DNA of 64,000 bases from a virus. Its lineage: Duplodnaviria; Caudoviricetes. The stretch lies in the IMG/VR virus record IMGVR_UViG_3300021093_000004. One strand, 5' to 3'. Within the stretch, counting starts at the first letter, position 1. Each line of letters starts with the position of its first letter. Under the pieces are notes generated by a model. That model saw only the letters and a program-made list of their open reading frames with translations, searched no databases and had not been told where the DNA came from. The position numbers were made by a program, and so were the translations under genes. Positions 17,162-49,747 of the stretch are shown here, piece by piece.

Positions 17162-17647
17162 ATGAAACTTCGCACTATACTCGAATTCGTAGAACCTGAG
17201 ATTAATGCGGCAGATCCCGAAGATTGGGAGGCTGCTGATCAGGCAGACCGTATTGCTAGCAATTCGGGAATTAGAATATCTCGGAATAAAGAGTTAACAC
17301 TAGTCGCACAAGTAGGTGGCGAAGTTGTCGGGGCGGTTTGGTCAGCGTTCGAACGTGACGATGAAGCAAGTCAAGAATACGGAGAGGATGTATACCGCTT
17401 CGATTTTGACGTTGCAGTTGATCCAAAATCGCGAGCTATGGGCATGGCGTCTGCTCGGATTGGGCCAAAACTTATTGATGCTGCTTTAGACCACTACCGC
17501 TCACTGAAATCTGAATTTGGAAATGCCTACATCCGTGTGTATGTTGTGAATCCGAAATTAGCCGGTTATCTGGAACGACGTTACGGATTTGAACCGGAAG
17601 GACGTGGATGGTCTCAAGATAGTTTACATATGATTTATCACGGATAA
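17162..17647 (+). CDS. GNAT-family acetyltransferase with MKLRTILE N-terminal tag
   Basis: EVVGAVW, motif A-like VAVDPKSRAMG...IGPKLIDAA, motif B-like LAGYLERRYGF. Confidence 0.65.
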   Translation: MKLRTILEFVEPEINAADPEDWEAADQADRIASNSGIRISRNKELTLVAQVGGEVVGAVWSAFERDDEASQEYGEDVYRFDFDVAVDPKSRAMGMASARIGPKLIDAALDHYRSLKSEFGNAYIRVYVVNPKLAGYLERRYGFEPEGRGWSQDSLHMIYHG

Positions 17648-18673
17648 TCCGGGCGTTTGTGTATTTCGAGCGATCTTGTCTTTGTCGATTCTCAGATTTG
17701 TGATAATATTTGTCATTCGTTCAATCATAAATCCCAATAATACTGCCGCGTCTGGAAAAACGATCCTTTCGGCACTTGAATGGCTGATATCTAGCTCGTT
17801 CCACAGTTCAATATTCTGCATTACTGTGGTTTGATATCCTCTAATTACTCTGGCTAGACCACAAATATTCTCACATTGTATAGGATTTCGCTTGTGCGGC
17901 ATGCTGGATGATCCGACTTGGTTTTCTTCAAATCCTTCTGCCATTTCTTCTATTCCGCTTTGTGATAATAGCCGAATATCGGTTGCAATTTTCGCGATTG
18001 CACTTGCCAATAATGCCCATTCATTCATGCGTTCTGCATAGATGCCACGGTGGATGATCTGCCCATCATACAAGCCTTCGACGAGATTCAGTTTAGACAG
18101 CGTGTTTATAACGACAGCACGATTGACATACTTTAGTGATCCTACACTATCCGCCAATCGTCCGTAATAAGCACATTTGAATGTTCCGTACCTGAGAATT
18201 GTGTGCAAATATGTATCGAACTTTTGGCTGAGTGGCATTAGTTCTGCGGCCTGCCCATGAGTTCGTCCCACGATCATAATTCCATCACACTCAGAGATTT
18301 TCTGCTTGAGTATAGATACGAGTGCTCGCAAGAGATCAGTGATAACTTCATTGCTGGCACGGATCATCATAGAAAAAGCGGTGTCAACAATGTCCGATGA
18401 AGTCAAACCATAATGCACGAATCGGCTGAATAATGGATCAGTTTCGTGTACTTTCGATTCGAGCCACTCAACGAATGCGACTACATCGTGTTTCGTTTGC
18501 ATTTCTCTCGATTGGATGTCATCGATCCACGATGACTCGAAATGATCAGGGGCGAGAATGGAGACGGCTTTTAGTTCTGACAGAAATGATAATTCAATTT
18601 GCGTCCATACAAGGTATTTATTGCCAATGGACCAAATTTCTGAGATTTTTGGGTGATCGTATCGTGGTAACAT
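17624..18673 (-). CDS. purB: Adenylosuccinate lyase, C-terminally shortened (349 aa)
   Basis: MLPRY..., TKHDVVAFVE, VHYGLTSSDIVDTA, GRTHGQAAE, signature GSSSMPHKRNPIQCENICGLAR, DISHSSAERIVFPD. Confidence 0.92.
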   Translation of the reverse strand: MLPRYDHPKISEIWSIGNKYLVWTQIELSFLSELKAVSILAPDHFESSWIDDIQSREMQTKHDVVAFVEWLESKVHETDPLFSRFVHYGLTSSDIVDTAFSMMIRASNEVITDLLRALVSILKQKISECDGIMIVGRTHGQAAELMPLSQKFDTYLHTILRYGTFKCAYYGRLADSVGSLKYVNRAVVINTLSKLNLVEGLYDGQIIHRGIYAERMNEWALLASAIAKIATDIRLLSQSGIEEMAEGFEENQVGSSSMPHKRNPIQCENICGLARVIRGYQTTVMQNIELWNELDISHSSAERIVFPDAAVLLGFMIERMTNIITNLRIDKDKIARNTQTPGLSVINHM

Positions 18674-18725
18674 TTTCTTCTCCGATAACTTTTTCTAGCT
18701 TTAAAACTTTGGAGAGGTCAGTTGA

Positions 18726-18917
18726 ATGTATGTAATTTTTGATAATCTAACCGGGAAATATTATACCGGTAATGGTTGGAATGCTGCATTGAAGCTAGCT
18801 CTTCAGCAAACTAAACTTCGTGCTGAAGAATTAGCTGAATCGATGAATATGCATGTTGCTCGTGGATGGATCAAAGGCGAATTCGTGTTGATTGACTACG
18901 ATTCAATAGATAATTGA
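18726..18917 (+). CDS. Small hypothetical protein
   Basis: SD GGAGAGG upstream; coupled to the next gene by an overlapping stop/start. Confidence 0.55.
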   Translation: MYVIFDNLTGKYYTGNGWNAALKLALQQTKLRAEELAESMNMHVARGWIKGEFVLIDYDSIDN

Positions 18918-19630
18918 TGCTCCAACACAAACGAAACGAACGATGGGAACCGTCTGCCGACCAACTCAGGCAATCGATCAAGGAGCGGACATTACAGATA
19001 CTTGGCGGTAGCTTAGAATTTCCTACTGATCATCGTCTTCGATATCTCCTTGATAATATTGAATGCAATCAATTAACTGCTGTTGAATTCGGATCATGGC
19101 ATGGTTGGCATACCGCCACGCTATCCAGAAAGTTTCGGCATGTGATTGCCGTCGATGCCCGCCCCACCAATGTCGCATTTGCCCTATTGAGGCTAAAATT
19201 GTTGGGCATTAATAATGTTGATGTAGTTTTATCCGATGTTCAATCATTTGAATTTAACTGTGACGTTCTAGTTCATATCGGGGTTTTATATCATTTGTCA
19301 TTCCCGATCAAGCATTTATACCATGTGTTGCCAAAATGTCATACTATCTGCCTCGATACCCATATTGGCGACGAGGACCGTCCTCATTTGACGCCATCAT
19401 ATGAAGTGTACAATGATGAGATATATTATGGCAAAAATTTCCCTGATGGTGACTGGGATGATGCGTTGAGTGGAGTTTGTGGTACTAGTTTTTGGCCTAA
19501 TTTGGCTGAGATTCATCGTGTTCTTAATAATTTGCGATTCAAGATTTTACACGAACATCGGCATATGGTTGATCCTGGCCCGCGTGTGACTATTGTCGCT
19601 TCGAAACGATGCGGCAGGATTCTCATGTGA
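18914..19630 (+). CDS. Class I SAM-dependent methyltransferase
   Basis: AVEFGSWHGWHT (motif I), VIAVDARPTNV, VHIGVLYHLSFP. Confidence 0.8.
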   Translation: MMLQHKRNERWEPSADQLRQSIKERTLQILGGSLEFPTDHRLRYLLDNIECNQLTAVEFGSWHGWHTATLSRKFRHVIAVDARPTNVAFALLRLKLLGINNVDVVLSDVQSFEFNCDVLVHIGVLYHLSFPIKHLYHVLPKCHTICLDTHIGDEDRPHLTPSYEVYNDEIYYGKNFPDGDWDDALSGVCGTSFWPNLAEIHRVLNNLRFKILHEHRHMVDPGPRVTIVASKRCGRILM

Positions 19631-19657
19631 GTATGTGCCCTAAAAATGGTGACAAGG

Positions 19658-19996
19658 TCAAGTGAAATGTGTCACATAAAATCTCCAAATTTGCGCATAG
19701 CAAACGCCCCAGCTTGCGCGATGCGCTTCAACCGCTACGCCGTTAAGCTCTTGATCGAGTGCGTGCGCGTACTCGTGGAGTAACGTGTCAATCGCAGACA
19801 ATGCCGACAAGTGTGTATCTACTTCAATAACAAAACGAATTATAGATCCATCGTTGTCGAGATATGTGATACAACTCCCACAGATTTTTTGCTTATTCAG
19901 TTTTTTACACACAATTCGCAAAGGACGTGACAACGGAAACTCACGCCGCAACTTTCGAGCAAGTGTTTTAAAATTGTTTTGCATATTGCGTGCCAT
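19658..19996 (-). CDS. Small zincin-like metallopeptidase domain protein
   Basis: TLLHEYAHAL (HExxH) and downstream H..SWG. Confidence 0.6.
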   Translation of the reverse strand: MARNMQNNFKTLARKLRREFPLSRPLRIVCKKLNKQKICGSCITYLDNDGSIIRFVIEVDTHLSALSAIDTLLHEYAHALDQELNGVAVEAHRASWGVCYAQIWRFYVTHFT

Positions 19997-20020
19997 AGTA
20001 CCCTCCTTGGTATGGCTTGT

Positions 20021-21346
20021 TTAATTTCCGAGAGGTCTCCCGGTGTAACTGTTGATGTTCACCTGCATTCTTGCAATAGGTCCCTCACTGTGATCCCAAA
20101 CAAAAGCCATTGCGCCTCGCTGTTGCCAGTTAAACGCTTTGATTCTGTGCCAGGCATTAGGTGGCGTCAGTGAGGGTAGGTATTCTACGCTGACACCTTG
20201 CTCCTCCATAATTACCGGACTACCTGAACCTTTACGGTGCTGGTCACCCAAGTGCCATTCACGAAAACAAGTCTTAGCCCATTGGTTTTTAGCTTCGTGA
20301 GCCATTAGTCCGGCTAAGCGAATTGGTTTAATGTGATGTCCATGGTCGAAACCTACCAAGTTTACCCCGTAATGCCAAAACTTGTACGGCGACGAATCCA
20401 CAATCACGCTGACATTGCTGTTCTGTCGGTAGTATGCCCGCAAAACATGTCCTAAACTAAAAGAAGAAACCTGATCATGGTTTCCGCTAATTTGAATTAC
20501 GCGAACAGGAGCTACCTCAGAAAGACGTTCCACGATCGCGATTCCAAGCTCAATAGCTTTCTCGTACACCGTAAAGTACGACACGCCTTCTGGCTGTAGT
20601 GTTCCTTTCGTTGTCGTGTGCATTAGATTGTCGTGGTGCATAAAGTCATTGCCAAATGGAAAGACAATTTCTTCAAAATCACCATAACTAGCTGCACGTT
20701 CAAGCAACCGATCGACAGTCCACATACAAAGCTTAGAACACTGCGATAAATCCCAAGAGTGATCGCTTTCACCCTTAAAACAAAGCATGCCAAGGTGCGG
20801 GTCCATCAAAGAAACTTCTAAAGCACGCCGCGTTTTGGATGAACGTCCTTTAGGATACTTAATGCGTGCGCGGAACGGTCCGTGCTTAGACAACTTGTCG
20901 AGCAAACGCTCTACCGCGATCTTTTCGTCTCGCTTGCGACGCAAAAGAACTTTAATCTGCCGCAAGCCAGTTTTGTAGATACCGCCGTCTGATTTTCCTC
21001 CGGCTTGTTCCCAGACGTTAGTAATGACTTGATCAATCTCAAAAAGTGCGAGATCAATTCCGGATTTTAAAATCAATTCTTCGTAGGTGTGAATCTGTTC
21101 ACCAAAATATTCAATCTCAGTGACAGCACCTTTTTCTTTGATGTTTACTTTCTCTTTTGCCGAAACAGTGTTGCCCGACTGCAAGTCTTTTCGCAATCGA
21201 TCAAGAAGTCCCGACTCTTTTAGTTTATAAAACACACAACCACGCGAGACGTTCATCTGTCTTGCGGTTTCTGCTAGATTGCCTTTATTAGCTAAAGCTA
21301 GCGAATACAACTCCTGATCTGTCAACTTATTGGCACGTTCGGCCAT
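20021..21346 (-). CDS. Calcineurin-like metallophosphoesterase with N-terminal HTH
   Basis: DPHLG, GNDFMHHD, GNHD, HGHH and GDQH motifs; N-terminal GNLAETARQMNVSRGCV helix-turn-helix. Confidence 0.82.
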   Translation of the reverse strand: MAERANKLTDQELYSLALANKGNLAETARQMNVSRGCVFYKLKESGLLDRLRKDLQSGNTVSAKEKVNIKEKGAVTEIEYFGEQIHTYEELILKSGIDLALFEIDQVITNVWEQAGGKSDGGIYKTGLRQIKVLLRRKRDEKIAVERLLDKLSKHGPFRARIKYPKGRSSKTRRALEVSLMDPHLGMLCFKGESDHSWDLSQCSKLCMWTVDRLLERAASYGDFEEIVFPFGNDFMHHDNLMHTTTKGTLQPEGVSYFTVYEKAIELGIAIVERLSEVAPVRVIQISGNHDQVSSFSLGHVLRAYYRQNSNVSVIVDSSPYKFWHYGVNLVGFDHGHHIKPIRLAGLMAHEAKNQWAKTCFREWHLGDQHRKGSGSPVIMEEQGVSVEYLPSLTPPNAWHRIKAFNWQQRGAMAFVWDHSEGPIARMQVNINSYTGRPLGN

Positions 21347-21423
21347 TGTTTATCCTCCATGACGCGACATTGTCGCAACTTTCTTTAGTTTTGGGTTGGA
21401 TTAACAATCTGGCACAAAATTAA

Positions 21424-21496
<73 letters not shown>

Positions 21497-21567
21497 CTTG
21501 AGGAATCATTCGTTCAATTTAATCGAAAACTAGCAACGATTGGTAAGCAAGATTCAAGCATGATCCA

Positions 21568-21813
21568 ATGTGTTGGACCAGCGACGGTTATAAGGACACT
21601 ATTCGATATTGGCAGACCGGCAACAAAGACCTGGATATTCTGCTGAAGGGCGTTGGAGAAGTCAGTGAACAAGTATGTCTAGACTTCGGCTGCGGAATAG
21701 GAAGGCTGACTATTCATGCCAAAGAAGCATTCAGGAAAGTACATGGAATTGATATATCAAAAACGGTTATTGATATAACCAAGAATAACGAAAGTGATTC
21801 ATTAGACACCTGA
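21568..21813 (+). pseudogene. Truncated class I SAM methyltransferase fragment
   Basis: Contains motif I CLDFGCGIGRLT and motif II VHGIDIS, but stops after 81 aa. Confidence 0.6.
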
Positions 21814-21855
21814 GTATATAGAAATTGTTCGACTCTTGTTAGATTTACAGAAATC

Positions 21856-22083
21856 ATGATCCACGAGTTCAACAAGCCAATACCTGTAGTCGTTGAAGGT
21901 AACAAAACAGGTTATGCAATTTATGTCCAATCTTCAGGCATGTTTGAGAATGATGTGTGGTGCGTCGTCCATTGTGATGGCGGAATAGTTAGACACTACA
22001 CTACTGACCAGATCAGGGTTTACCAAAATCTGACATTTAATATCAAGAAATCAGGTGGTCAGACGCAGGAATGTCAAACATAG
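21856..22083 (+). CDS. Small phage hypothetical protein
   Basis: MIHEFNKPIPV...GYAIYV...NDVWCVV...HYTTDQI; a beta-rich small protein typical of phage accessory regions. Confidence 0.6.
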   Translation: MIHEFNKPIPVVVEGNKTGYAIYVQSSGMFENDVWCVVHCDGGIVRHYTTDQIRVYQNLTFNIKKSGGQTQECQT

Positions 22084-22196
22084 CATTGGAGGTTACTATG
22101 ACATTCAAAGAGCGATTCGTTGTTGGTCTCGAACAACCCTGAATCGCTTTGGCTACCAGAGATGCACAAATGGGCCGATGTTCATGAAGGATAATT

Positions 22197-22919
22197 ATGT
22201 CAGATCCCATATGGGTCGGTTCTCTCGACGATATTCGACATGGCGAAGCTGCATTAGCGGCTATCAAAGAACAAAGTGACGTCGATCGCTGGGTCGATGG
22301 TCAAGGTATCATTCAAGTTGATAGAAATAGATGGGAAGCCGCCCAAAAGTTCGAACGACAAGGCTGGATGAACGCATGGGCCTCTGATTCTGATGATCGC
22401 AGCCGCGAGCACCACCAATTGTTTGATGGCTATAATGCAGTTCCACCAAATCTTGGTAACATATTAGAAGTTGGCTGTGGTCCGTTCACTCAAACGCGGA
22501 CGATCTTATCTGCCCGCTCTGCAACTTCGATTACTCTACAAGATCCGTTGATTAACGACTATCTTCATCATCGGCATTGTAGTTATACCAATCGCCGATT
22601 GCATGATATTCCGGTGACGTTAGTCCCAATGATGCTTGAGTATTTCACACCACCGGAAGAATTCGATACTGTGGTGTGTATCAATGTTTTGGAGCACACC
22701 ATGGACGTGAAAGTGTGTCTTCAACATATGCTCGCGGCACTGAAGCCGGGCGGAATATTGATTTTTGGGGAGCGAATTTACGACGACTTCGATCCTACGA
22801 GATTATATTGTATCGGGCACCCCATTCGGATTTGCAAAGCGATTGTTGACGAATTCAAAAAGAATTTCAGGATGCTTTTTGAGCGTAGTGATAATGGCTA
22901 TTTCATAGGTCAGAGATGA
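22197..22919 (+). CDS. Class I SAM-dependent methyltransferase
   Basis: ILEVGCGP, FDTVVCINVLEH, LAALKPGGILIFGE. Confidence 0.85.
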   Translation: MSDPIWVGSLDDIRHGEAALAAIKEQSDVDRWVDGQGIIQVDRNRWEAAQKFERQGWMNAWASDSDDRSREHHQLFDGYNAVPPNLGNILEVGCGPFTQTRTILSARSATSITLQDPLINDYLHHRHCSYTNRRLHDIPVTLVPMMLEYFTPPEEFDTVVCINVLEHTMDVKVCLQHMLAALKPGGILIFGERIYDDFDPTRLYCIGHPIRICKAIVDEFKKNFRMLFERSDNGYFIGQR

Positions 22920-22986
22920 GTCTCTTTGACATATGAACCAGTGGGCACTTGTTTTAACATACTCGCTCCACGTGTTAGGAGCGTAT

Positions 22987-23595
22987 ATGAACCTTTTCAT
23001 ACTGAATGTTGATCCACGTCAAGCGGCTATCGAGAACTGCGATAAGCATGTTTGTAAGATTATCCTCGAAGCCGCCGATATGTTGTGTTTAGCTCATTGG
23101 CACTTCGATTTTCCACGCATCGCACAAGCCCCGCAGATTCTTAGAGAATCTCGAATGGTTGTCAATGACAAGGGCACCCATCGGTGCGTTTGGCGGTATC
23201 GCCCCCAGAGTCAGAATAACAATCATGTTAGTGTCTGGGTCCGCACGAGTCTTGAAAATTATCGTTGGACAGGGCAGCATGGTCTGGCACTTTGTGACGA
23301 ATATGAACGTCGCTATGCACACACATTGCGTAAGAAGGGTTTACTGCATCATCAGACCCGACCAATTATGGAGTGGTTCGCGAAGAATGAACCACCGATC
23401 CAGTCTGTTGACAGAACGCCTTTTCGCCAAGCGGTAGCAGAAGATTGCTACAATTCCGACATTGTTACTGCATATCGTGAATATTATGTGAGATACAAGG
23501 TACGATTTGCTAAATGGCGATTGGGTAATGTACCAGAATGGTTTACGGATGGTGTAAGGGCAAATCTTACTTCTTTTCCATCTTCCGCAACTTAG
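22987..23595 (+). CDS. Pyrimidine-dimer DNA glycosylase / endonuclease V-like family protein
   Basis: MNLFILNVDPRQAA..NCDKHVCKIILEAADMLCLAH, YRPQSQNNNHVSVWVRTSLENYRW, D.VTAYREYY. Start placed at ATG 22987. Confidence 0.8.
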   Translation: MNLFILNVDPRQAAIENCDKHVCKIILEAADMLCLAHWHFDFPRIAQAPQILRESRMVVNDKGTHRCVWRYRPQSQNNNHVSVWVRTSLENYRWTGQHGLALCDEYERRYAHTLRKKGLLHHQTRPIMEWFAKNEPPIQSVDRTPFRQAVAEDCYNSDIVTAYREYYVRYKVRFAKWRLGNVPEWFTDGVRANLTSFPSSAT

Positions 23596-23726
23596 TATAA
23601 ATCTTTCGGATTTTCTTTGAGATGATCTTTCGCGATTTCTTTGGCGACTCTGCTGTCTGATGTCTGTTCTAATTTGGTTTCGATTCTCATTCGAAGTTGT
23701 TCGGGATCGAATTTACGTAGTCGCAT
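23592..23726 (-). CDS. 44-aa microprotein resembling the DUF5661-type phage motif
   Basis: Manual translation MRLRKFDPEQLRMRIETKLEQTSDSRVAKEIAKDHLKENPKDLY; the A.EIA.DHL.E.P..Y pattern. Below the ORF-track length cut-off. Confidence 0.55.
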   Translation of the reverse strand: MRLRKFDPEQLRMRIETKLEQTSDSRVAKEIAKDHLKENPKDLY

Positions 23727-23730
23727 AAGC

Positions 23731-24186
23731 TTATAACGAAACGTCTTCATCAGTCAAATAATAGGTAGCTCCGAAACCCTCACGAAATCCGTGCTTTTTA
23801 TAGATTTGGGCAGACCCTTCCGTCGAAGATAGGTACAATCCAGCCCCATGGTCTGCGGCTACGGACTTTAAACCTCTTATGACTTCTGATCCAATTCCAG
23901 GATGGGCGGTTGCTAAACTTCCTATTCTTAAATAATCGCCCTTGGGCATCCCTTCAGAGTCTCCATGATCTGGTGCTTTCCAGAGACTAGCCACTCCTAC
24001 AAGCTTGCCGCTGTGATCTCTAAATGCATGAACATCGAACCATTTCGGAGAATCACCTGTGGCAGCCGATAGGGCTCGTTGCAATCTTTCTCCGTCTGGA
24101 AACGAATTTAGAATTTCATATACGATTGTTCTTCCATCTAACACTTGACTTCGAAGCCTATTTTCATCTATTATTCGTAGTCGCAT
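23731..24186 (-). CDS. GNAT-family acetyltransferase with MRLRIIDE N-terminal tag
   Basis: KLVGVASLW, LRIGSLATAHPGIGSEVI, LYLSSTEGSAQIYKKHGF. Confidence 0.72.
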   Translation of the reverse strand: MRLRIIDENRLRSQVLDGRTIVYEILNSFPDGERLQRALSAATGDSPKWFDVHAFRDHSGKLVGVASLWKAPDHGDSEGMPKGDYLRIGSLATAHPGIGSEVIRGLKSVAADHGAGLYLSSTEGSAQIYKKHGFREGFGATYYLTDEDVSL

Positions 24187-24222
24187 ACTGGCCCGTTTCC
24201 TATCCTGGGCGGTCACACTTAT

Positions 24223-24296
24223 GCCGCTATCAGCTAGAAACCAAGGCTACCCGGTTCTAAGCCGGGTAACGGTGGGTTCGAATCACCATAGCGGTA
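24223..24296 (+). tRNA. Atypical tRNA with CUA anticodon (amber suppressor-like)
   Basis: Acceptor GCCGCTA/TAGCGGT + A73, D stem AGCT/GGCT, anticodon stem (A)CCCGG/CCGGG(T) around a 7-nt loop TT-CTA-AG, and TTCGAAT in an irregular T arm. Confidence 0.6.
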
Positions 24297-24299
24297 TAC

Positions 24300-24874: not shown

Positions 24875-24907
24875 TAATTCCTTCTCCTGTATAATAGATT
24901 TGCCCAT

Positions 24908-25162: not shown

Positions 25163-25167
25163 TTATA

Positions 25168-26799: not shown

Positions 26800-26846
26800 A
26801 GCGATCTCCTAGTTTTAATATTTTTGCGTCTAGGTAAACATAGTGT

Positions 26847-28277
26847 ATGAAGCTGAAACTCATTACCGAAGGTATATCGTACTTACCAAATTCTGGAGTC
26901 GATCTTGCTCAAATTGAGCAACGACTCCAGGGTGAGGCAAAGGTCAATCAAATTGATTTGATGCAATTTCTTGAGGCTAATGGTACGTTTGTATTCCAAC
27001 CGCAAGATTCTCCAAATGATATTATCAAGATTGAACCATTTCAAAAATCTGTTAATCTCAATATAGCTCCTACCGACCCTGAAGCCCTAGAATCATTTCA
27101 AGGGGCACGGATATACTATGCATATCGTGTGGCTGATCCCGCAGACATCGACCTCGATTTCTACAAAGCAAAACAAGAACCGCCGATTTTACGAGCCCTT
27201 AGTGCTATTTCTCCACCACGAGGAAAATTCAGAAGATTGAATAATCTTGATTCTCTGTCAGCAAAACACCAAGAATTATTGAGAGACCTAAATAGTAAAT
27301 CGGTTCAATATCACAACGATGCCCACCGTGCACAAGTACACGGTGAATTGCAGGGTGACATTGATGTCATAAAACAAGTCGAAGGACTGCTGAAGACAAA
27401 TGGAGTGGAATCAGTCGATGGCCTGAGAAAAATACTTGCTAAATCAACTCGCCGATATAATACAGGCAAGAAAAAACTGTTACCGGCTCTTAAAAATGCT
27501 CTTGGGCATATTATTAAACATCCACGCAATGCACATGAAGCTCAACTGCGTACTACTATATTGGATCAGATTATTAACAAAGTCAATGTAATCGGACAGT
27601 GGGGCGATGGGCACGATGTTTTCCCGGACATTATTGCATACCCAACTTCGACTGTTCGTGCTGGTGAGACTCAAAGTTTCAATCAGGAATTCGCGAATCG
27701 CATCTCTGAAGCATATGGTGGTGTTCCGGTAATTGAAATTGCCAAACGGCCCAGAGAAGACACCACCGATTACTTCGAATCGACTATTGATCGTGCTGCG
27801 CTTCAGCGATTTGCAAATACTATACATAACAAATACTTAACGACGCCGCCAGGTCCGGCGTTAGCGAAAAAAAGGCAAATTACCAGGAAGACACAATTAA
27901 AATATTTGGGGGCAGTTCGATACAACGAAACGATACTCCCAACTGATCCTAGATGGCCTAAGTTGTGGGCTGACAAAGAATTTGCGAAGCTTCAGAAGGG
28001 GCTAGAACGTACGCCGGTTGGTCTACAGCCAACTTATAAATCACTTGCCGGACCATCCGGCAGCATGGGATCTAAACGGCGATACGTACAATTATTTGGG
28101 AAAAGTGCCGGAGTATCCCAATATAATTCGGATGATCAGCTACGAGGGAAAAATGTCTTAATTGTAGATGATAATATTCAGTATGGCGGAACCATGGAAA
28201 CGCTCCACAAATTAGTGAATGAAGCGTCTCCACAGAGTATAACCGTCTTTGTTCCGTTTTATTTCGGAAAGTTCTAG
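26847..28277 (+). CDS. Protein with C-terminal type I phosphoribosyltransferase (PRTase) motif and MKLKLITE tag
   Basis: LRGKNVLIVDDNIQYGGTM (PRPP-binding loop); D.IAYPTST earlier in the domain; TAAACATAG motif 4 nt upstream of the ATG. Confidence 0.72.
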   Translation: MKLKLITEGISYLPNSGVDLAQIEQRLQGEAKVNQIDLMQFLEANGTFVFQPQDSPNDIIKIEPFQKSVNLNIAPTDPEALESFQGARIYYAYRVADPADIDLDFYKAKQEPPILRALSAISPPRGKFRRLNNLDSLSAKHQELLRDLNSKSVQYHNDAHRAQVHGELQGDIDVIKQVEGLLKTNGVESVDGLRKILAKSTRRYNTGKKKLLPALKNALGHIIKHPRNAHEAQLRTTILDQIINKVNVIGQWGDGHDVFPDIIAYPTSTVRAGETQSFNQEFANRISEAYGGVPVIEIAKRPREDTTDYFESTIDRAALQRFANTIHNKYLTTPPGPALAKKRQITRKTQLKYLGAVRYNETILPTDPRWPKLWADKEFAKLQKGLERTPVGLQPTYKSLAGPSGSMGSKRRYVQLFGKSAGVSQYNSDDQLRGKNVLIVDDNIQYGGTMETLHKLVNEASPQSITVFVPFYFGKF

Positions 28278-28465: not shown

Positions 28466-29026
28466 TCATAGAGTCCGATTTTTGCCAGCAGCCCTGTGAT
28501 TATAGCCTTCTCTGTGTTGGTTCGTGGCATGTCGGGGAATCGGTGGCTGTACATGTTGGTTCAATAGGGTAAAGACTTGAAGTAGGAATGCCTGTACGAA
28601 ATCTCCAATACCAGGGCTAGTCTTGTCAGAATTTCCTGCTATGTTCAGGATTTTGATATCGTTCTCGATGATCCAGTTCGACACATCTTCAGGCGTCGTG
28701 GTTTCACGTCTAACGTCAATCGACAGGCTCGGTTTGCCATATTGCCGAATCATTTTCGCGGTGAGTTGTTCTCCCGGTGACACGAAATTCGACGCGAACC
28801 GTATAGTCCCATCTGATTCTTTCACATTTAGAGCGGTGCGTGGTGGGTATTCAGGGCTTTCGTGTTCTTTGATGCCGTATTGGTAAGCGAACTCTGGATG
28901 AGACCCGTCGTGTGCCTTGAAGCCTTTCGGCATCCATCCACCGGTCTTTAACCCGGCTGTAATAGCCGCGTCCAATCCCGCTCGGTCGGCTCCGGTCTGC
29001 CCTCCAGAAATCACTTTGGTTAACAT
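28466..29026 (-). CDS. Putative molybdenum-carrier / SLOG (DprA-like) family protein
   Basis: KVISGGQTGADRAGLDAA, GGWMPKGF, Y..RT.LNV.ESDGT, LNIAGN. Confidence 0.85.
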   Translation of the reverse strand: MLTKVISGGQTGADRAGLDAAITAGLKTGGWMPKGFKAHDGSHPEFAYQYGIKEHESPEYPPRTALNVKESDGTIRFASNFVSPGEQLTAKMIRQYGKPSLSIDVRRETTTPEDVSNWIIENDIKILNIAGNSDKTSPGIGDFVQAFLLQVFTLLNQHVQPPIPRHATNQHREGYNHRAAGKNRTL

Positions 29027-32759: not shown

Positions 32760-32771
32760 CAAATATATCGT

Positions 32772-42393: not shown

Positions 42394-42612
42394 GCCAATC
42401 ACGAGGAAGGACCTGAAGATCACAGACCTTGATTTTTTAGAAATAGCTTCGTGCCAAGGTCATTCTACTATGGAGTCTACGGAAGATCAAGCACCGCAGA
42501 GACTCAACAACAAGCCAGTTTGATCATCCGCGAAAATGAGTTCTTGCTCATTTGATTGGACGCAAACGTATTGTAGTTCTCGGATACTCCGCCAGGACGC
42601 GGATACACACCT

Positions 42613-42649
42613 TCGGACCCGTCACTTTGTCGGGAAGTGACGGGTCCGA
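42613..42649. terminator. 15-bp hairpin, probable terminator
   Basis: TCGGACCCGTCACTT / AAGTGACGGGTCCGA with a 7-nt loop; the U-tract is weak. Confidence 0.55.
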
Positions 42650-42779
42650 TCTGTTTCCAGACTGAAAGGTCATCATGGAAGTTACGCGACCATGGGGACA
42701 TTACATTGACCATGTGCGAACTGAAGAATTAGCATGTTAAACCATTATTGTAAAACTGACACACCGCATATCATTACAA

Positions 42780-43007
42780 TTGTTTGCGGGTCGAATTTTG
42801 GTGAGGGGTTTACGGATTTGGCCAAGTCCAAATAATGATTTATTTGAAGTCAATCCTGGCAATAGATTTACCATTGACAAAGAGATTATACGTCAGATTA
42901 TAAATACTGGTCAAATTGATTTAATAATACACGAAATGCAATGCGGAGTGTGTTCAGAAAATGACATCGAACGCATTCAAGATCCTGATGGCAGAGAAAA
43001 ATCATGA
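42780..43007 (+). CDS. Hypothetical protein
   Basis: 75-aa ORF coupled to the next gene by an ATGA overlap. Confidence 0.45.
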   Translation: MFAGRILVRGLRIWPSPNNDLFEVNPGNRFTIDKEIIRQIINTGQIDLIIHEMQCGVCSENDIERIQDPDGREKS

Positions 43008-43660
43008 AACTCTTCATTACCCTTGATGACCACTTCAAATATCTCTCAGAATTAGTGGCCAGAAAACCGAAGGGTGTATTCATAGCCAGTTTTGGCATTT
43101 ATGCTGGCATCACATTTGACGGACGTGACACCACCGCGTGGGGTGAGCGGTATAAGCTTCAGACGCGAGACTTTTTGGAGAGTCTGCGTCCAATCCCAAA
43201 CGTTCGCTTAATGATCGGTATTCCGGATTACAAGAGTTGTCGCGGAAAAGTTGCGTGTTCGCATTGTGAATGCGGATACATTTACCAAATGACTCGGCTC
43301 TTGAATCACGCAGAACTATTTTCCGAATTCAAATGGAAAGCCGCGACTCAAGCACACGTCAAGTGCATTCTATTCTTTTTCGAGAAAGAAATTCTTGGAG
43401 TCGCTGGTGGTCGAAATCTGAACGATTCGAATTCTATTGATGCTACGTTCCAGATTGACTCTTCTGTTGGAACACAATTGTACCAACAGCTCGTTCCAAT
43501 TTGGAAAGCATCACACGATCTGACTGGCGAGGCGATTAATGCGGTTCTCGTTAAACAGGGAATCTCTCAATCGACCATTAATGGTATTATGGCTGAATTT
43601 GAAGCCGAAGACGCACTTCAACGGAAAGCCAGAGAAGTCTCTGAAAGTGCACCTGAATAG
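43004..43660 (+). CDS. Phospholipase D superfamily (HxK-type, nuclease-like) protein
   Basis: VFIASFGI; AHVKCILF...GVAGGRNLNDS is an HxK...G[SG]xN variant lacking the canonical Asp. Confidence 0.6.
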   Translation: MKLFITLDDHFKYLSELVARKPKGVFIASFGIYAGITFDGRDTTAWGERYKLQTRDFLESLRPIPNVRLMIGIPDYKSCRGKVACSHCECGYIYQMTRLLNHAELFSEFKWKAATQAHVKCILFFFEKEILGVAGGRNLNDSNSIDATFQIDSSVGTQLYQQLVPIWKASHDLTGEAINAVLVKQGISQSTINGIMAEFEAEDALQRKAREVSESAPE

Positions 43661-43671
43661 TGGGAATTCCA

Positions 43672-44835
43672 ATGCCAACAACCCAGAAGCCACGTATCAC
43701 GCCTTTGGCGATTCAATTACGTCCAGAGACATTGAACGATATCATAGGTCAAGAACATTTATTGGCCGCTGGTAAACCCATACGCAGAATGGCTGATACA
43801 AAAAAATTCCAAAGCACCATCTTTTGGGGGCCTCCGGGTGCTGGAAAAACTTCGCTAGTATCCGCTTTGGCTTCGGAAACAAACTCCAATTTCCATAAGC
43901 TAAATGCCACAGAAGCTACTGTAAAAGACCTTCGCAAGGTTATTGAGAATGCTCAGAAATTATTGCCGGATATTCGGACATTTGCTTTTGTTGATGAAAT
44001 CCATCGGTGGTCCAAATCCCAACAAGACGTAATGCTGCCGGTCGTTGAAGATGGGACTATTGTTTTATTTGGGGCGACGACAGAAAAGCCCAAATTCGCT
44101 GTCAATAGCACCATATTATCTCGATGCTTGGTCTTGGAGGTCAAGCCGCTTACCGCCGCAGATATATTGAAATTGATTATAAAAATTAAAGAATATTACA
44201 AGTCGAAAGATCGTCTTGTAAAAATTCCGCCAGAGGTAGCCAAACGGCTTATCAATCGATGTAGTGGTGATGCCAGAAAAGCGATAATGGCATTAGAGAC
44301 CGCTATTGAAATTTTGTCAGAGAATGATATAGTTACTCTCGATCACATTGATTTGGCAATCCCGGACAAGCATATAGTCTTTGATGCCCACGGTAATGAC
44401 CACTATGATCTTGCCCATTGTTATCAAGAAGCCATACAACATTCTGATACTGATGGAGCTATTTATTGGCTGGCTAAATGGATTCAGTCTGGAGAAGATC
44501 CGGCTTATATCTGTCGTCGAATGCTGATTACAGCATTTGAGGACTGTGCCGGTAATCCGTCCGCATGGTTAGCGGCTATGGCTGCGTGTTATACGGCTGA
44601 ACGCACCGGGCTTCCGGAATGCATGATTCCGATGTCTCTCGCTACTTGTGAGATGGGCCAAAGCAAACGAAACAAAAGTGCGTTTTATGCTATTCACGCA
44701 GCGATGGCCGATGTGGAGAACCGAGAAACGGTTCATGTTCCTCCGGGGTTGCGAGCAGGTACCAATGGTTATGTTCATGCTGTGAATAAACAGTACCTGA
44801 AAGGCTGGGGTCGTGATGTAAACCGGTTTGACTAA
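43672..44835 (+). CDS. rarA: Replication-associated recombination protein A (RarA/MgsA AAA+ ATPase)
   Basis: PLAIQLRPETLNDIIGQEHLL, GPPGAGKT, FVDEIHRWSKSQQD, LFGATTEKP, ILSRC, GDARKA, YICRRMLITAFED. Confidence 0.93.
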   Translation: MPTTQKPRITPLAIQLRPETLNDIIGQEHLLAAGKPIRRMADTKKFQSTIFWGPPGAGKTSLVSALASETNSNFHKLNATEATVKDLRKVIENAQKLLPDIRTFAFVDEIHRWSKSQQDVMLPVVEDGTIVLFGATTEKPKFAVNSTILSRCLVLEVKPLTAADILKLIIKIKEYYKSKDRLVKIPPEVAKRLINRCSGDARKAIMALETAIEILSENDIVTLDHIDLAIPDKHIVFDAHGNDHYDLAHCYQEAIQHSDTDGAIYWLAKWIQSGEDPAYICRRMLITAFEDCAGNPSAWLAAMAACYTAERTGLPECMIPMSLATCEMGQSKRNKSAFYAIHAAMADVENRETVHVPPGLRAGTNGYVHAVNKQYLKGWGRDVNRFD

Positions 44836-44974
44836 CTTTCAGATGAAATCGGCGGTACTGTGCATGGTATCGACCTTGCTACATTTCGTAACCAATTAAA
44901 TGCAGCCACCTTCGAAATCTTTTCAGTGGTTTTATTTTAGCTGCGACCAGATCTCTTGCATCATGATATATCCT

Positions 44975-45550
44975 TTATAGATGATGACCAATAATAACTT
45001 TTGAATAGTTGACAATCGGATTATGTTTTAGAAGCTTCGACAACCAGCGATAATCGCTATATCGTCCGCCGTTGGTAGCCCACCTTTCTCGTGCTGCTAG
45101 CTCTCTCTTGACGCACAAACACATTGTGTCAATATCACCAGCCTTTATGTTATTGGCAGTTGGGATAATAAGATTTTGATGTTTGGTTCGGACAATGCCA
45201 ATGTCAAAACCTTGAGCCGCACTATATTGAGATACCAGTGCATGTTGATAATAGATATTATCATCATCCCAGAATACTAGGTATTCTCCCTTCGCTTCCG
45301 TGATTCCTACGTCGCGGGCAGCCGCTCCATAATCTCCGTGAAGTTGCTGCATTTTAACCACCAAATCATTCACCGGCAACTTTGTATCAAGATTAAATTT
45401 GCGATGATCGCGTTCATCCATCGCTTCTTGAATTATAATGATCTCAACCGCTAGTCCGGCGACAGACTGCTGTTCAATATAATCCAACACCCTGACCAGA
45501 TTGGCGGATCGTGCGGTAGCAACGATTATGGACAAGTCGTATGTTAACAT
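44975..45550 (-). CDS. Glycosyltransferase family 2
   Basis: LSIIVATAR, ARDVGITEAKGEYLVFWDDDN. Confidence 0.85.
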   Translation of the reverse strand: MLTYDLSIIVATARSANLVRVLDYIEQQSVAGLAVEIIIIQEAMDERDHRKFNLDTKLPVNDLVVKMQQLHGDYGAAARDVGITEAKGEYLVFWDDDNIYYQHALVSQYSAAQGFDIGIVRTKHQNLIIPTANNIKAGDIDTMCLCVKRELAARERWATNGGRYSDYRWLSKLLKHNPIVNYSKVIIGHHL

Positions 45551-46392
45551 ACTTGCACCAAGAAATCGATTGCCGTTGTCGCCATGATCTTTATCGCATC
45601 CTCTGGTTTAATCGTTCCCCATGTTCTGTTTATGAGGATTTCTAGATATTCAGGATTGCTTATAATATAATCATCTGGAGTGATACTTGTGATTTTCCTC
45701 GATAAAACTCGCATCTTTGCTTTGTTAAGAATTGATTCGTATGTTGCAAGTGGGCGAACAACTCTGTTTCTCACTAATTGGTTCGATTCTAGATCCATCA
45801 GTAAGTGAGCAAACGCTTTGTTAAAATATCCGCTCTGGAATCCACCATCACGAGATGACCATGGCCTAAATCGGATATAAATTTTCCCTTGTGGTTTTAT
45901 TCTCTGTTTGATCTTCAGAAGTGTCACTACTGGGTCTTGATCGAACTCCAATGACTCATAAATGATCCCAATATCATATGGACCTTCGGCTTCTTCCAGT
46001 GAATTGATGATTTTAACTGACGGTGGTTGGTCGTCGGGGCCGAACTTATAGGTATTGCATACTAATTCGACTTCGGTATTTTGAAATGCATGACCAATTG
46101 GGATCGATGGTCCATTCGAATATTCAAGTATCTTAGCGTTAGAGAGATCGAATTTAACATCTTGAGCCTGTTGTTTCGACACTACTTTCCAATATGCGTT
46201 GGGATGATTTGCAGCCGATGGCCAGAATTCGAATTGACGAATGTCGAGACTTTTAGATGAATCAGGGAGTTGGATCAATTCGGTTTCTGGTGGTAATTCT
46301 GATAAGATGTCTGTACTGAGTAAGCGGGCAACGTGTTCGCATTGCTTGCTCAATAGCAGTAAAGCATTGATAAGTTCTAATCGACTATCCAC
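45544..46392 (-). CDS. Degenerate class I methyltransferase-like protein
   Basis: YDIGIIYESLEF, LKIKQRIKPQGKIYI; motif I is poorly conserved. Confidence 0.55.
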   Translation of the reverse strand: MDSRLELINALLLLSKQCEHVARLLSTDILSELPPETELIQLPDSSKSLDIRQFEFWPSAANHPNAYWKVVSKQQAQDVKFDLSNAKILEYSNGPSIPIGHAFQNTEVELVCNTYKFGPDDQPPSVKIINSLEEAEGPYDIGIIYESLEFDQDPVVTLLKIKQRIKPQGKIYIRFRPWSSRDGGFQSGYFNKAFAHLLMDLESNQLVRNRVVRPLATYESILNKAKMRVLSRKITSITPDDYIISNPEYLEILINRTWGTIKPEDAIKIMATTAIDFLVQVC

Positions 46393-47590
46393 CGAAATCC
46401 TCTTCTACGGTGAATTGAATCTCGACACCCGGAAAAACCGCTCGTATCTGCTTGCGTTGATCATTAGGTAATGAATACTTTGTGAATATCCGCATAAACT
46501 TCCGAATTACATCGACTCTTTTTACACCGTCCAATAATGCATTGTTAGTGAATCTTGATTGAATTGATGACAACTCGGAAACCTGGGTGATTTTCGATCT
46601 GGTCCTGCCTATCTCAAAACGTCGAAAAGCCCGTCCGCATTTGCAACGCTCGTAATCTTCAGAGATATCGGCATAGTCTCCGTTCCAATAGTTTACGAAT
46701 GGCGACGGTAATGAAAAGTAATCATAACTAATCAATCGATAGTTGTCCGAATATGCCCATGACAGCCCATCTAGTAAATGGTAGACGTTGTGTTTGCAAG
46801 TGAAGAAAGTTACTCCTCCGTCCCAGCATCGCATGTGGTCGCACCATGCCTCAATATTTCCGTTCTGTTGTAGTTCAATTACATCCTGAGTGCGTAATTT
46901 ACTGCCAGTATTACTAATTAGTCTGCATAACTTCTTTTTGCACTGTAAACGCTTCGCGTTCCATGCAAGAGACGCGATACTATTAGCTTGAGAATGTATA
47001 ATATCGATTTTGTTTTCAGTAATATATTCAATCAGGTCCTCGTAATACTTGTAATAATTGACGTAGAATGTGCGGTTTGCGATGGCAGAGTGAATTTCGG
47101 CTTGACCTTTTAGCCCATGGGATACCAATGGATTCTGAGTAACGTATGTCTCAATCAGTTGATCGGTATTCGGTTTTACCGTATCAAAATGCAGATATAG
47201 TATCTTAACTGGTCCGGATATGTTGAATTCATCGGCGATAGTCTTGTAATGACTTTCGCATTCTATTGAAGCGTATATGTCACGCCAGATTTTATATCTG
47301 AATGGTGCCCCGGTTGAACCGCTTGTTTCGTTCTCAAATGTGTCGTAATTTGGGAGATACCATTGATCTTTATTGACGAGATCTTGCTTTGTGATAATGC
47401 CGGTGTGTCGGCGGTAGACTGGTGATAATTGTGCCTGCTTAACAATTTTGGTTATGAGGTAAGCAGTGACTTCTCTGATGAATTCTTCACTCTGATACAT
47501 CAAGGTATTGGCAATACCCGCATACTGCTTCAGAAATAGTTGATGATCGGTGTTGCTTCTGAATAATTGGTGAATATCATTTAGGAGCAT
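46385..47590 (-). CDS. Adenylate-forming enzyme, phenylacetate-CoA ligase/CapK-like
   Basis: ETSGSTGAPF P-loop, MRCWDGG, PFVNYWNGD, CKCGR..R.F.IGR. Confidence 0.75.
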   Translation of the reverse strand: MLLNDIHQLFRSNTDHQLFLKQYAGIANTLMYQSEEFIREVTAYLITKIVKQAQLSPVYRRHTGIITKQDLVNKDQWYLPNYDTFENETSGSTGAPFRYKIWRDIYASIECESHYKTIADEFNISGPVKILYLHFDTVKPNTDQLIETYVTQNPLVSHGLKGQAEIHSAIANRTFYVNYYKYYEDLIEYITENKIDIIHSQANSIASLAWNAKRLQCKKKLCRLISNTGSKLRTQDVIELQQNGNIEAWCDHMRCWDGGVTFFTCKHNVYHLLDGLSWAYSDNYRLISYDYFSLPSPFVNYWNGDYADISEDYERCKCGRAFRRFEIGRTRSKITQVSELSSIQSRFTNNALLDGVKRVDVIRKFMRIFTKYSLPNDQRKQIRAVFPGVEIQFTVEEDFGG

Positions 47591-49133
47591 AGCGAGACCA
47601 AAATACTTCGCCTTTGATTATGCGACAATCATGATCCGGTGATGGTAAGGACAAGCATGTTTGTAAACCATCTGATTTTTCGCACAGAGTTCGGCAAGGC
47701 CCGTTTTCACTGTATACATACTGTCCGTTCAGACGGCCAAAGCCAAATTTGAGCCATCGTTGGCTATAAATGAAGTATTTTATGATTTCGTTACGGATAT
47801 CTGCTAATAATTCTGTGTCCGGTGGCAATTCTGTGGTGATAATCCATTCGGATTTGCAATGCTGCTTTAAGTATGCATATGGGTCGATATCATCCGTTAT
47901 AATGAGCCAGTTCGATGGTCCGAATTTGTTGAGATTATTCCTTAAAGCTGTGAGATCGGCTTTGAAGGTTCGGTTGTCTGTGATATACCAATGCTCTACA
48001 TCATTATATTGATGGTTGCAGAGAACCCGATCAGAATATACCCATTTCGTTGTTTGCTGACAATGCGTAGATTGATGTCCAATATGGTCTCCTAAGCTTG
48101 GCTTTGGATAGAAAACTGGCCAATTGTTCTGGGACATCAATATGAAGACTCCAAGATCATCAAAACTAGTCTTTTTCTGGCTTTGTACCCCATAATATCG
48201 TAGTGGAATAAGACTAGACAATATTTCTTGGACGGTTTCATGTGACATGATGATTGAATTCGGTCCGCCGTGGTAATTCGAGACGCTCCTCCAACCATTC
48301 GATGGATCTTTATCGATGGCGTTTGGCCCGAATAAGCTTACCAAATGTGGCTGTTCTGTGAACCACAGAGAATTCTCTAAATAATTGCGAGTGCCGGGAG
48401 CTACCACAATATCATCTTGGATCATGAAAAATGCGTCGGCGTCGATATTTCGAATGAACAACTCGTACAGCCCAAGAATCCAATTGCCAAATATTCCCGT
48501 CTGCTTAAACCTATGAACATATGGCCAATTTGGTCCACAATCGATATATGATCCTGGTTCTGCGAAGATTATCCCAGTGCCCCATCCAGCAGATTCTAAT
48601 GCTTTGATGGATTTTGTGATAGTCGGATATCTTCGTGGGGCTATTGTAACGCCGACAGCCCATTTTCTAATCGTGTCGAATTTTTGTCTTGGTTCATAAA
48701 TTCCAAAGTCTGGATTCTCGTTAAATTCATAAGAAATTCTGAGACGATCTGGGCATAGTTGGCAGCTTTTCTGATCATTTGAAATAATTGTACATTGTCT
48801 ATAATAATGACATTGGTGCTTGCAATTGAGATATTCTGAAATTGGGAGCGGGTCTGAAGGAATATTGAGAGGATCGCCTAATAGTATACAATTGGCGTCT
48901 TTGAACGTTGTTGGTGGTGGAATTACTCCGCTGTTCGTTAGTCGGCGGAATTGAGATCTGAATGGATCAGAGGCGAGATCGAGAGGAGGACTTGTGGCTA
49001 AGCAGTATTCGCAAACCGATGGATCAAATTCTGTTTGGACTTGTACTAATTCGGTGAATTTTTGGCATTCAGCAGATATAGTATAATCTTGGTGCTTTCG
49101 ATGTTTACAATTCAACTTCGATGATTTGTCCAT
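47577..49133 (-). CDS. Cys-rich N-terminal region fused to a GT-A-like glycosyltransferase domain
   Basis: Multiple Cys clusters, then WAVGVTIAPRR, GIFGNW, FFMIQDDI, YPKPSLGDHIG. Confidence 0.6.
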   Translation of the reverse strand: MDKSSKLNCKHRKHQDYTISAECQKFTELVQVQTEFDPSVCEYCLATSPPLDLASDPFRSQFRRLTNSGVIPPPTTFKDANCILLGDPLNIPSDPLPISEYLNCKHQCHYYRQCTIISNDQKSCQLCPDRLRISYEFNENPDFGIYEPRQKFDTIRKWAVGVTIAPRRYPTITKSIKALESAGWGTGIIFAEPGSYIDCGPNWPYVHRFKQTGIFGNWILGLYELFIRNIDADAFFMIQDDIVVAPGTRNYLENSLWFTEQPHLVSLFGPNAIDKDPSNGWRSVSNYHGGPNSIIMSHETVQEILSSLIPLRYYGVQSQKKTSFDDLGVFILMSQNNWPVFYPKPSLGDHIGHQSTHCQQTTKWVYSDRVLCNHQYNDVEHWYITDNRTFKADLTALRNNLNKFGPSNWLIITDDIDPYAYLKQHCKSEWIITTELPPDTELLADIRNEIIKYFIYSQRWLKFGFGRLNGQYVYSENGPCRTLCEKSDGLQTCLSLPSPDHDCRIIKGEVFWSRYAPK

Positions 49134-49353
49134 CGAATTTTCCGTTAGGTAATGCTGCTTGATCTGGCTCCGGATCTTCGTCTCGGAGTTTAAGCCACTT
49201 GTTTTCTAATTTACTCCACTCGTAATACATGAAGCGAAGTGACTCTGGCGTTCCCTCTCCGTGCGCGTGGGGTGAGTGTTCGTGATGCGCATGGTGGTGC
49301 TTCTCACCAGTGAATGCAATAATCGAATCATCGAAGAAGTCTGATTTTTTCAT
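49105..49353 (-). CDS. Small His-rich hypothetical protein
   Basis: KHHHAHHEHSPHAHG; overlaps the start of the next gene. Confidence 0.55.
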   Translation of the reverse strand: MKKSDFFDDSIIAFTGEKHHHAHHEHSPHAHGEGTPESLRFMYYEWSKLENKWLKLRDEDPEPDQAALPNGKFDGQIIEVEL

Positions 49354-49747
49354 TGTAATTCTCTCAGGTCTTGCTGTGTCTATTTAAATATTTGAACGTG
49401 CTTTAACGAATATCGGGTTGCCATATGATATGACGAATCGCTGCCACTTTGCGTGATGAAATTAAATCGCGACCAGATTTATCTGCGATTACTGTTGAGC
49501 ATAAAGAGAATCGGGTTGCCTTCAAGCTCAAAGAAGTAATTTTGTGGGGATCGATATCTAGAAATTGCAACACCATCGGATGCATTTTCTCAGCGGTCTC
49601 GGGGTCTTTACGAAGATCCTAAATCTATTAATAATTTCCCAACCCGGTCGATATGTTCTTTAGTTCGCTTCTCGAAGAAAGCGACCATTTCTGGGGTCGG
49701 ATCAGAGATTTTATCTTCTGAAATCATTCGTAATCTCATGGCCCCAC

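Follow-up and report, generated by a model that had tools for sequence, protein, structure and literature searches.

An eight-residue N-terminal leader on unrelated proteins of uncultured huge phages as a probable capsid-targeting sequence

A short N-terminal leader is shared by several genes of the window

The 64-kb stretch of an uncultured phage analysed here (IMG/VR record IMGVR_UViG_3300021093_000004; hereafter the window) contains a T4-type head module, with TerL, portal, Peptidase_S77 and Gp23, and five genes whose products begin with the same eight-residue leader, or tag. Cargo 1 (17162..17647, + strand) is a GNAT-family protein (PF00583) of 161 residues with the leader MKLRTILE (17162-17185). 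Cargo 2 (23731..24186, - strand; 151 residues) is weakly related to the GNAT family (PF00583) and starts with MRLRIIDE (24163-24186), and cargo 3 (26847..28277, + strand; 476 residues), which has a phosphoribosyltransferase (PRT)-type fold, starts with MKLKLITE (26847-26870). A tagged remnant, a 43-residue open reading frame (ORF) at 49608..49739 (- strand), has the leader MRLRMISE at the head of an N-terminal DUF5662 stump. The 5' part of a fifth tagged gene occupies 1..147 (- strand) and encodes MKLSLIIE followed by TRRNFLK; its product has 285 residues when complete.

The first-pass annotation had grouped the first four of these under the pattern M[KR]L[KR]xIxE, and translation gave all four N-termini as claimed (17162 +, 24186 -, 26847 + and 49739 -). 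In a six-frame scan of the window from every start codon, these four ORFs were the only start-anchored matches to this strict pattern. An MRLRK at 23726 (- strand), which had been counted with them, is no member, as it lacks [IL]xE and lies inside a 52-residue DUF5661 ORF able to start at 23750. The shared N-terminus stood, but not the requirement for K/R at position 4: relatives have N, Q, S, T, C and others there, and I or L at position 6. The true form of the tag is M-[KR]-L-x-x-[IL]-x-E, with position 4 free. Freeing this position brought in the fifth member, whose gene runs past the window edge. Every member begins at the initiator Met, and the leader comprises 8 residues, or 9-12 in variants. 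Among 42 distinct tagged starts, I/L at position 6 and Glu at position 8 are found in all, by construction of the pattern.

The leader is strongly non-random and constrained as a peptide

At least 160 contigs in IMG/VR encode a capsid protein 71-92% identical to that of the window, and several of them, of 340-410 kb, are rated complete. In the phage collection, LR756511, an uncultured phage of 595 kb, comes closest, with a capsid protein 40% identical. The genome-wide census was run on two complete relatives, G001 and G002 (354 and 408 kb), instead of the window's own genome. Their genes came from a crude home-made caller, and the counts were therefore repeated on all ATG-initiated ORFs.

As a control, the seven positional constraints of the tag were placed in all 840 distinct orders, and the matches to each order were counted at N-termini. 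The real order ranked first of the 840 in the window, G001 and G002 alike. Four matches were observed in the window against a permutation mean of 0.03, 4-6 against 0.05-0.31 in G001 and 8-11 against 0.13-0.49 in G002 (Poisson p = 1e-6 to 1e-12). When five relatives were searched with a degenerate DNA pattern, 14 matches were obtained, compared with 1 for the reversed control.

Over the 42 distinct tagged starts, all 6 codons were used at Leu3, 6 at K/R2, 7 at I/L6 and both at Glu8. Since the codons are free to vary, it is the peptide that is constrained, rather than DNA or RNA, and the possibility that the tag is an RNA element was rejected on this codon diversity. The proteins carrying the tag are mutually unrelated in an all-against-all BLASTP comparison, except for true orthologues, and the tag recurs on unrelated families and in different phages. 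Of the 17 tagged genes in the two complete relatives, 5 lie within 10 kb of the capsid gene, a higher number than expected (binomial p 0.002). The tag is therefore real, strongly non-random, under selection at the peptide level and portable.

The leader precedes GNAT-like, DUF5662 and twin-arginine-signal proteins

Cargo 1 and cargo 2 had been described as two acetyltransferases. Both do pass the PF00583 cut-off of 20.7 bits, but the matches are marginal (24.9 bits for cargo 1 and 21.5 bits for cargo 2). A plausible acetyl-CoA motif of the form [QR]xxGx[GA] is present in cargo 1 (RAMGMA at residues 91-96), with none clear in its G001 orthologue; in cargo 2 the motif is not clear at the expected position. 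BLASTP detected no similarity between the two proteins, no homologues of cargo 2 were found outside its own cluster, and a sequence search of the PDB returned no match for cargo 1 and only weak GNAT matches for cargo 2. Orthologues of cargo 1 keep the leader, as MKLTTITE in G001 (54% identity) and MRLREIHICE in L081 (49%); the 20-30 residues behind it cannot be aligned, while the tag itself is kept. At the DNA level, the start codon of cargo 1 is flanked by a perfect 8-bp inverted repeat, TATAGTGC ... GCACTATA (17154-17179, + strand), with the ATG in its 10-nt loop, and this structure could hide or expose the start in RNA.

The 43-residue ORF had also been listed as a tagged gene. It does have the tag but is a truncated remnant rather than an intact gene. 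It is 59% identical to the first 37 residues of a 174-residue DUF5662 protein of G002 (leader MRLIMILE), covering the leader and only the first ~30 residues of the ~155-residue domain (PF18907), and no continuation was found downstream of 49608-49739 in any frame. As it matches the N-terminus of DUF5662 and nothing more, we consider it a gene stump. Fifteen of 120 DUF5662 homologues, of phage type, have the tag 4-8 residues ahead of the domain. Six further homologues are annotated with a start of the form 'MI.E' (P0006, P0011, P0015, P0016, P0017 and P0025); the DNA of the two that were checked encodes MRLQMIAE and MRLRMIAE upstream, so that the true start was missed by gene callers. Public gene calls often begin at the second Met of the tag because no Shine-Dalgarno sequence precedes the first, and the leader is consequently under-reported in database N-termini. 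By contrast with the phage-type members, Planctomycete chromosomal homologues (Planctopirus, Rhodopirellula and Planctomicrobium; 55-57% identity) begin at the domain, untagged. On this alignment evidence the tag is an appended module in the DUF5662 family. The nearest cellular homologues of the tagged DUF5662 proteins (P0048, P0053, P0068 and P0083) are Planctomycete chromosomal proteins, which hints at a host group or a partner in gene exchange.

The fifth tagged gene is complete as L122:9084-9938:- (285 residues). Its product starts with MKLSLIIE-AEF-TRRNFLK, in which the tag is followed by a twin-arginine (Tat) signal, TRRNFLKSMAGAAAAL, matching the pattern [ST]-R-R-x-F-L-K, and by a hydrophobic stretch; it scores 22.5 bits against the Tat profile PF10518, for a cut-off of 22.7. 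A second composite of this kind, MKLSAIIEVDSRRDFLKK, reading MKLSAIIE-VD-SRRDFLKK, is encoded downstream of the capsid gene in two relatives (L002:13460, + strand; L005:13459, + strand). The tag may be tolerated in the n-region of the Tat signal, or the two signals may act in sequence.

In the relatives, the tagged proteins comprise GNAT, S-adenosylmethionine (SAM) lyase, DUF5662 and Tat-signal proteins and many proteins without a known family. G002 encodes a tagged protein with a weak match to ART-PolyVal, an ADP-ribosyltransferase (ART) profile (25.8 bits, cut-off 31.2), and L035 and L046 each encode, just upstream of the scaffold gene, a tagged, very basic peptide of 43 residues. For 9 of 10 tagged proteins, PHROGs supplied no function.

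One cargo family carries two types of leader before the same junction

Behind its leader, cargo 3 has a beta domain in the N-terminal part and then a long helical region; the C-terminal part has a PRT-type fold that includes a phosphoribosyl pyrophosphate (PRPP) loop, that is, a hydrophobic strand, two acidic residues and a loop with Gly-Thr. This loop, VLIVDDNIQYGGT at residues 436-448, aligns to the PRPP loop of HGPRT, and D441 and D442 are invariant in 53 homologues. An AlphaFold2 model from the single sequence was useless (predicted local distance difference test score, pLDDT, of 36); when rerun with the alignment of 53 sequences, the prediction reached a pLDDT of 88 and a predicted template modelling score of 0.83. 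Residues 1-4 of this model are disordered, and its first strand starts at residue 9. The top Foldseek matches were all PRT, HGPRT, PyrR or ComF proteins, the fold covering approximately residues 215-476. The best cluster of the AlphaFold database had an E value of 1.7e-6 and a TM score by hit of 0.69, with E values of only ~1e-2 for the PDB.

The label of phosphoribosyltransferase (PRTase) given to cargo 3 by the first-pass annotation was upheld as regards a PRT-type fold and an intact PRPP loop, the loop being the only part that matches by sequence. Cargo 3 has no closely related protein that is characterised, and ComF-type proteins have the PRT fold, yet are not classical PRTases. We therefore describe cargo 3, as modelled, as a PRT/ComF-type fold protein with a PRPP loop.

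The PRT-like family of cargo 3 includes 59 cluster representatives. A homologue at 60% identity starts with MRLKTITE, and one in G001, at 21% identity, starts with MKLDMIYNCVSE, then Gly likewise. About 30 representatives have leaders of this MKL type; in about 17 others the leader is built on an F-[KR]-E-W core (FKEW type), as in MDFKEWYFINE and MNFKEWMLTE. Both types end with hydrophobic-x-Glu directly before Gly, followed by an aromatic or aliphatic residue, and in the alignment of 53 sequences Glu8 and Gly9 are at least 90% conserved. Two types of leader before one and the same junction indicate a single cargo family with clade-specific, interchangeable leaders. Of the comparisons made, this alignment-based one appears to us the strongest.

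LR756511 encodes one FKEW-type member, whose gene follows Gp23 downstream at a distance of 1.5 kb and shares its strand with the Portal_T4, S77 and scaffold genes; its neighbours encode a NADAR protein starting with MLTWTEFLE and a 1076-residue protein starting with MEFREWFRSAE. No match to cargo 3 was found in the related-locus search of viral contigs or by tblastn against 50,697 phage records, among which its sister-clade homologue matched only LR756511, an unannotated record. Among the phage records searched, no cultured phage with virion proteomics has a PRT-like cargo. In the window, cargo 3 adjoins a cpYpsA gene of the SLOG family (28466-29026, - strand); in the sister clade, the gene directly ahead of the PRT-like one encodes a NADAR protein that has a leader of its own (L128:9504-10001, + strand). 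These neighbours suggest nucleotide or ADP-ribose chemistry around the PRT-like cargo.

The head module encodes a gp21-family protease and conserved [IL]xE sites

The head module of the window includes the large terminase TerL (4050-6026) and the portal (6632-8611), followed by a prohead protease of the T4 gp21 family (Peptidase_S77, PF03420, E 4e-17; 11794..12576, + strand) and the major capsid protein of the Gp23 family (PF07068, E 6e-80; 13402..15021, + strand). The protease aligns to T4 gp21 (PDB 5JBL, E 3.6e-9) and has the catalytic motifs GEFDHP at the His position, GISSRG at the Ser and WDAV at the Asp. Its N-terminus contains a conserved site [LIV]IAE/TG, in which the slash marks the junction, and an upstream [LI]xE site. 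The propeptide of the capsid protein, of ~94 residues, has five [IL]xE sites (20-22, 31-33, 43-45, 76-78 and 92-94); E78 and E94 are invariant in 56/56 distinct relatives, each after [IL]-x. In this clade the propeptides of capsid protein and protease are presumably processed at these [IL]xE sites.

The gene between those of the protease and the capsid protein (12639..13358, + strand), the position of T4 gp22, probably encodes the scaffold, to judge from its place. Its product starts with MNKIKTLLE, with a consensus M[DN]KIKxLL[E/x]K in ~70 relatives. We had considered that this N-terminus was a cleaved copy of the tag, an idea that was dropped because the Glu is not conserved among relatives. 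The protease (11794-11811) and the capsid protein (13402-13419) themselves share the N-terminus M-L-P-[ST]-R, kept in relatives as M[LI]P[ST]R, which may constitute another short signal at the N-termini of head proteins.

Some tagged genes start directly behind an A/T-rich motif

An upstream motif had been reported at two of the tagged genes, and it is indeed found there: A[TC]ATAGTG occurs at 17155 and 26840, ending one base before the ATG. In its longer form it abuts the ATG of cargo 1 as AAAATATAGTGC (17151..17161, + strand) and that of cargo 3 as AAACATAGTGT (26836..26846, + strand), in both cases without a Shine-Dalgarno sequence; a further copy lies at 32761-32771, 4 nt before an ATG. 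Relative to the ATG, occurrences of A[TC]ATA peak at position -9 in each of the three genomes, and 5/20 genes with A[TC]ATA at -9 are tagged, compared with 12/1047 of those without it (Fisher p 7e-6). Over all loci, 10 of the 27 ORFs behind CAAA.ATA-N4-ATG have the strict tag and several more have near-variants of it. Many tagged genes are without the motif. A near-identical sequence, GTAAATATAGAAT / GTAAATATAG, is present 29 nt before the portal gene, which makes a role of the motif as late promoter plausible. Its spacing to the ATG would then suggest leaderless transcripts.

The leader probably acts as a capsid-targeting sequence

The interpretation that we favour, and consider probable on the sequence comparisons above, is that the leader is a T4-style capsid-targeting sequence (CTS), the counterpart in this clade of that of T4. 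By analogy with T4, we infer the following course of events. Through the leader, the attached protein would enter the scaffolding core of the prohead during head assembly, the gp21-family protease (11794-12576) would cut after Glu8, at [IL]-x-E, and the mature protein would stay inside the head after removal of the leader. The cargo would then leave the head with the DNA at infection, and the two GNAT-like proteins and the PRT-fold protein would act enzymatically in the host. A capsid-targeted set of this kind had been the central proposal of the first-pass annotation. Every prediction of it that can be tested on sequence was borne out, namely the protease, the propeptide sites, the portability, the untagged cellular homologues and the junction; in the PRT-like family the tag ends at the family-wide Glu-Gly junction, where the folded domain also starts. 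The designation of the cargo as injected effectors is drawn solely from the analogy with Alt and Ip1-3 of T4. Several observations weigh against a capsid-targeting role or its consequences. Most tagged genes are dispersed over the genome, on both strands. Apart from starting with M-K and ending in hydrophobic-x-E, the leader bears little likeness to the T4 sequence MKTYQEFIAE, and the resemblance of the scaffold N-terminus to the tag is only partial, because the scaffold Glu is not conserved. Since a Tat signal directly follows the tag in one cargo and in a similar gene of relatives, the tag may belong to the n-region of that signal, which is compatible with another destination. The marginal GNAT assignments make the inferred GNAT chemistry weak, and the phage is uncultured.

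We considered the possibility that the leader is an address or control peptide with a role away from the capsid, for example in localization to a membrane or assembly site, in masking of activity until its removal, in control of stability or as a need of the translation of Shine-Dalgarno-less, possibly leaderless, mRNA. The strong association of tagged genes with an A/T-rich motif that abuts the ATG without a Shine-Dalgarno sequence (5/20 against 12/1047; 10/27) is what such a role would lead one to expect, and the joining of the tag to a Tat signal in one member and the mainly dispersed tagged genes also agree with it. Yet the motif is missing from many tagged genes, and the freedom of synonymous codons indicates that it is the peptide, rather than RNA, that is constrained. 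Furthermore, the invariant hydrophobic-x-Glu at a fixed distance is the gp21-type site kept in the propeptides of capsid protein and protease, and in the sister clade the same cargo family has a leader resembling the T4 CTS and ending at the same junction. A non-capsid role is for these reasons possible though unlikely. Still less should the shared N-termini be ascribed to chance or to common descent of whole genes: Lys2 is common in bacterial and phage proteins and the two GNATs of the window belong to one superfamily, but the real order ranked 1/840 in three genomes with Poisson p down to 1e-12, cargo similarity is undetectable outside true orthologues, and there are at least 42 distinct tagged starts. 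We give this explanation hardly any credence.

If the leader does load proteins into the prohead, the cargo might nonetheless work within the head or in its assembly, through condensation of DNA, building of the core or modification of the packaged DNA, and not on the host. The internal proteins of T4 are basic and associated with DNA, and IPIII has an effect on head assembly (PMC9026906); the tagged, very basic 43-residue peptide encoded just upstream of the scaffold gene (L035, L046) would suit such a function. However, the internal proteins of T4 and Alt are ejected with the DNA, Ip1-3 acting against restriction (PMC12373910, PMC9026906), and the classes of cargo found here and in relatives (weak ART match, SAM lyase, GNAT and, in the sister clade, NADAR) are typical of host-directed or counter-defence activities. 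A function confined to the head is accordingly very unlikely in our opinion.

Comparison of the leader with known head-targeting signals

Leaders of the T4 CTS type have 10-19 residues, Alt being cut at ITE-6 (PMC5694885); the proven CTS of T4 is MKTYQEFIAE (PMC8442874). Residues 8 and 10 of the IPIII CTS govern its processing, and gp21 itself has a site at LIE-9 (PMC9026906). The packaged proteins of T4 include an ADP-ribosyltransferase, Alt, and inhibitors of type IV restriction enzymes, Ip1-3 (PMC12373910, PMC9026906). The leader described here shares with the T4 CTS its short length, its place at the extreme N-terminus and its [IL]-x-Glu end. Like the CTS, it is common to otherwise unrelated, non-essential-looking proteins of a phage whose protease is of the gp21 family and whose capsid protein is Gp23, enzymes are among the cargo (Alt in T4, the tagged weak ART match in G002), and the cargo genes differ greatly among related phages. 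The capsid propeptide of the clade, with its several sites, resembles the multiply cut gp23 propeptide, and the N-terminal site of its protease parallels LIE-9 of gp21. The two differ in that the leader has 8 residues here, compared with 10 in IPIII and 6 removed from Alt, and reads M[KR]Lxx[IL]xE in place of MKTYQEFIAE; that the cargo genes are scattered, unlike the one or two ip loci of T4; that the cargo is mostly of enzyme size rather than made up of small basic proteins; and that one cargo adds a Tat signal. What is new relative to T4 is that the leader is shorter and different, that the cargo set is large and rich in enzymes, that one cargo family bears two dialects and that a composite with a Tat signal occurs.

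In the phiKZ-like phages SPN3US, phiKZ and 201phi2-1, propeptides of ejection or inner-body proteins are cut by S80 proteases at [SAG]-x-E (PMC5694885). These are likewise giant phages in which head proteins are cut after the Glu of a three-residue motif, with propeptides thought to direct incorporation into the prohead. However, their propeptides have mostly 80-130 residues and are protein-specific, with an S80 protease and a small residue at P3, whereas here a uniform 8-residue tag is found with an S77 protease and Ile/Leu at P3. The FKEW-type leaders of LR756511 and its relatives are closer in that they share the PRT-like cargo, the hydrophobic-x-Glu junction before Gly and a phage with S77 and Gp23, in which the tagged genes adjoin the head module. 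They represent another dialect (MDFKEWYFINE, MNFKEWMLTE, MLTWTEFLE), nearer to the T4 CTS. In the searchable literature there is no description of FKEW-type leaders; T-even phages are the only ones reported there to have CTS leaders, and phiKZ-like phages the only ones reported to have long propeptides.

If the leader is a true capsid-loading signal, the proteins that uncultured huge phages carry into their hosts become predictable from sequence, and the set carried by this clade includes acetyltransferase-like, PRT-fold, ADP-ribosyltransferase-like and SAM-lyase proteins. Such cargo would act ahead of any phage gene expression, making these proteins prime candidates for counter-defence or host take-over. 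The principle known from T4, with three small inhibitors of type IV restriction and Alt, would extend to a larger, more varied and enzyme-rich set. The tag would also be an eight-residue handle for the packaging of foreign proteins, as the T4 CTS already is, and the occurrence of two leader dialects on one cargo family offers a natural experiment on tag evolution. A bolder reading, which we regard as decidedly unlikely, is that huge T4-like phages use an exchangeable address code, of which the leader is one dialect, and that at least one cargo has a two-stage address, for the capsid and then for Tat. In the latter the leader would be clipped in the head, exposing the Tat signal at the new N-terminus, and the injected protein would be re-exported to the periplasm by the next host's own Tat system. 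Were such a code to hold, sequence would be enough to list every protein loaded into the head.

Other features of the window

A megablast search of the 17-29 kb region against phage records returned a tRNA fragment as its only match. Between the portal and protease genes lies a gene for a protein of 1018 residues with no family match (8734-11790, + strand). The protein has Gly/Pro/Ala-rich and very acidic low-complexity stretches and ~30 [LIVM]xE motifs, and is a candidate for a core or scaffold-like component that would be cleaved into fragments. A CAP-superfamily gene (PF00188; 6047-6631, - strand), annotated as such in the precomputed Pfam list, separates the terminase gene from the portal gene and is encoded on the other strand. 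Directly past the capsid gene, a 120-residue ORF (15199-15561, + strand) has a signal-peptide-like start and tandem repeats of the VQQ[QR]FVAAPV type.

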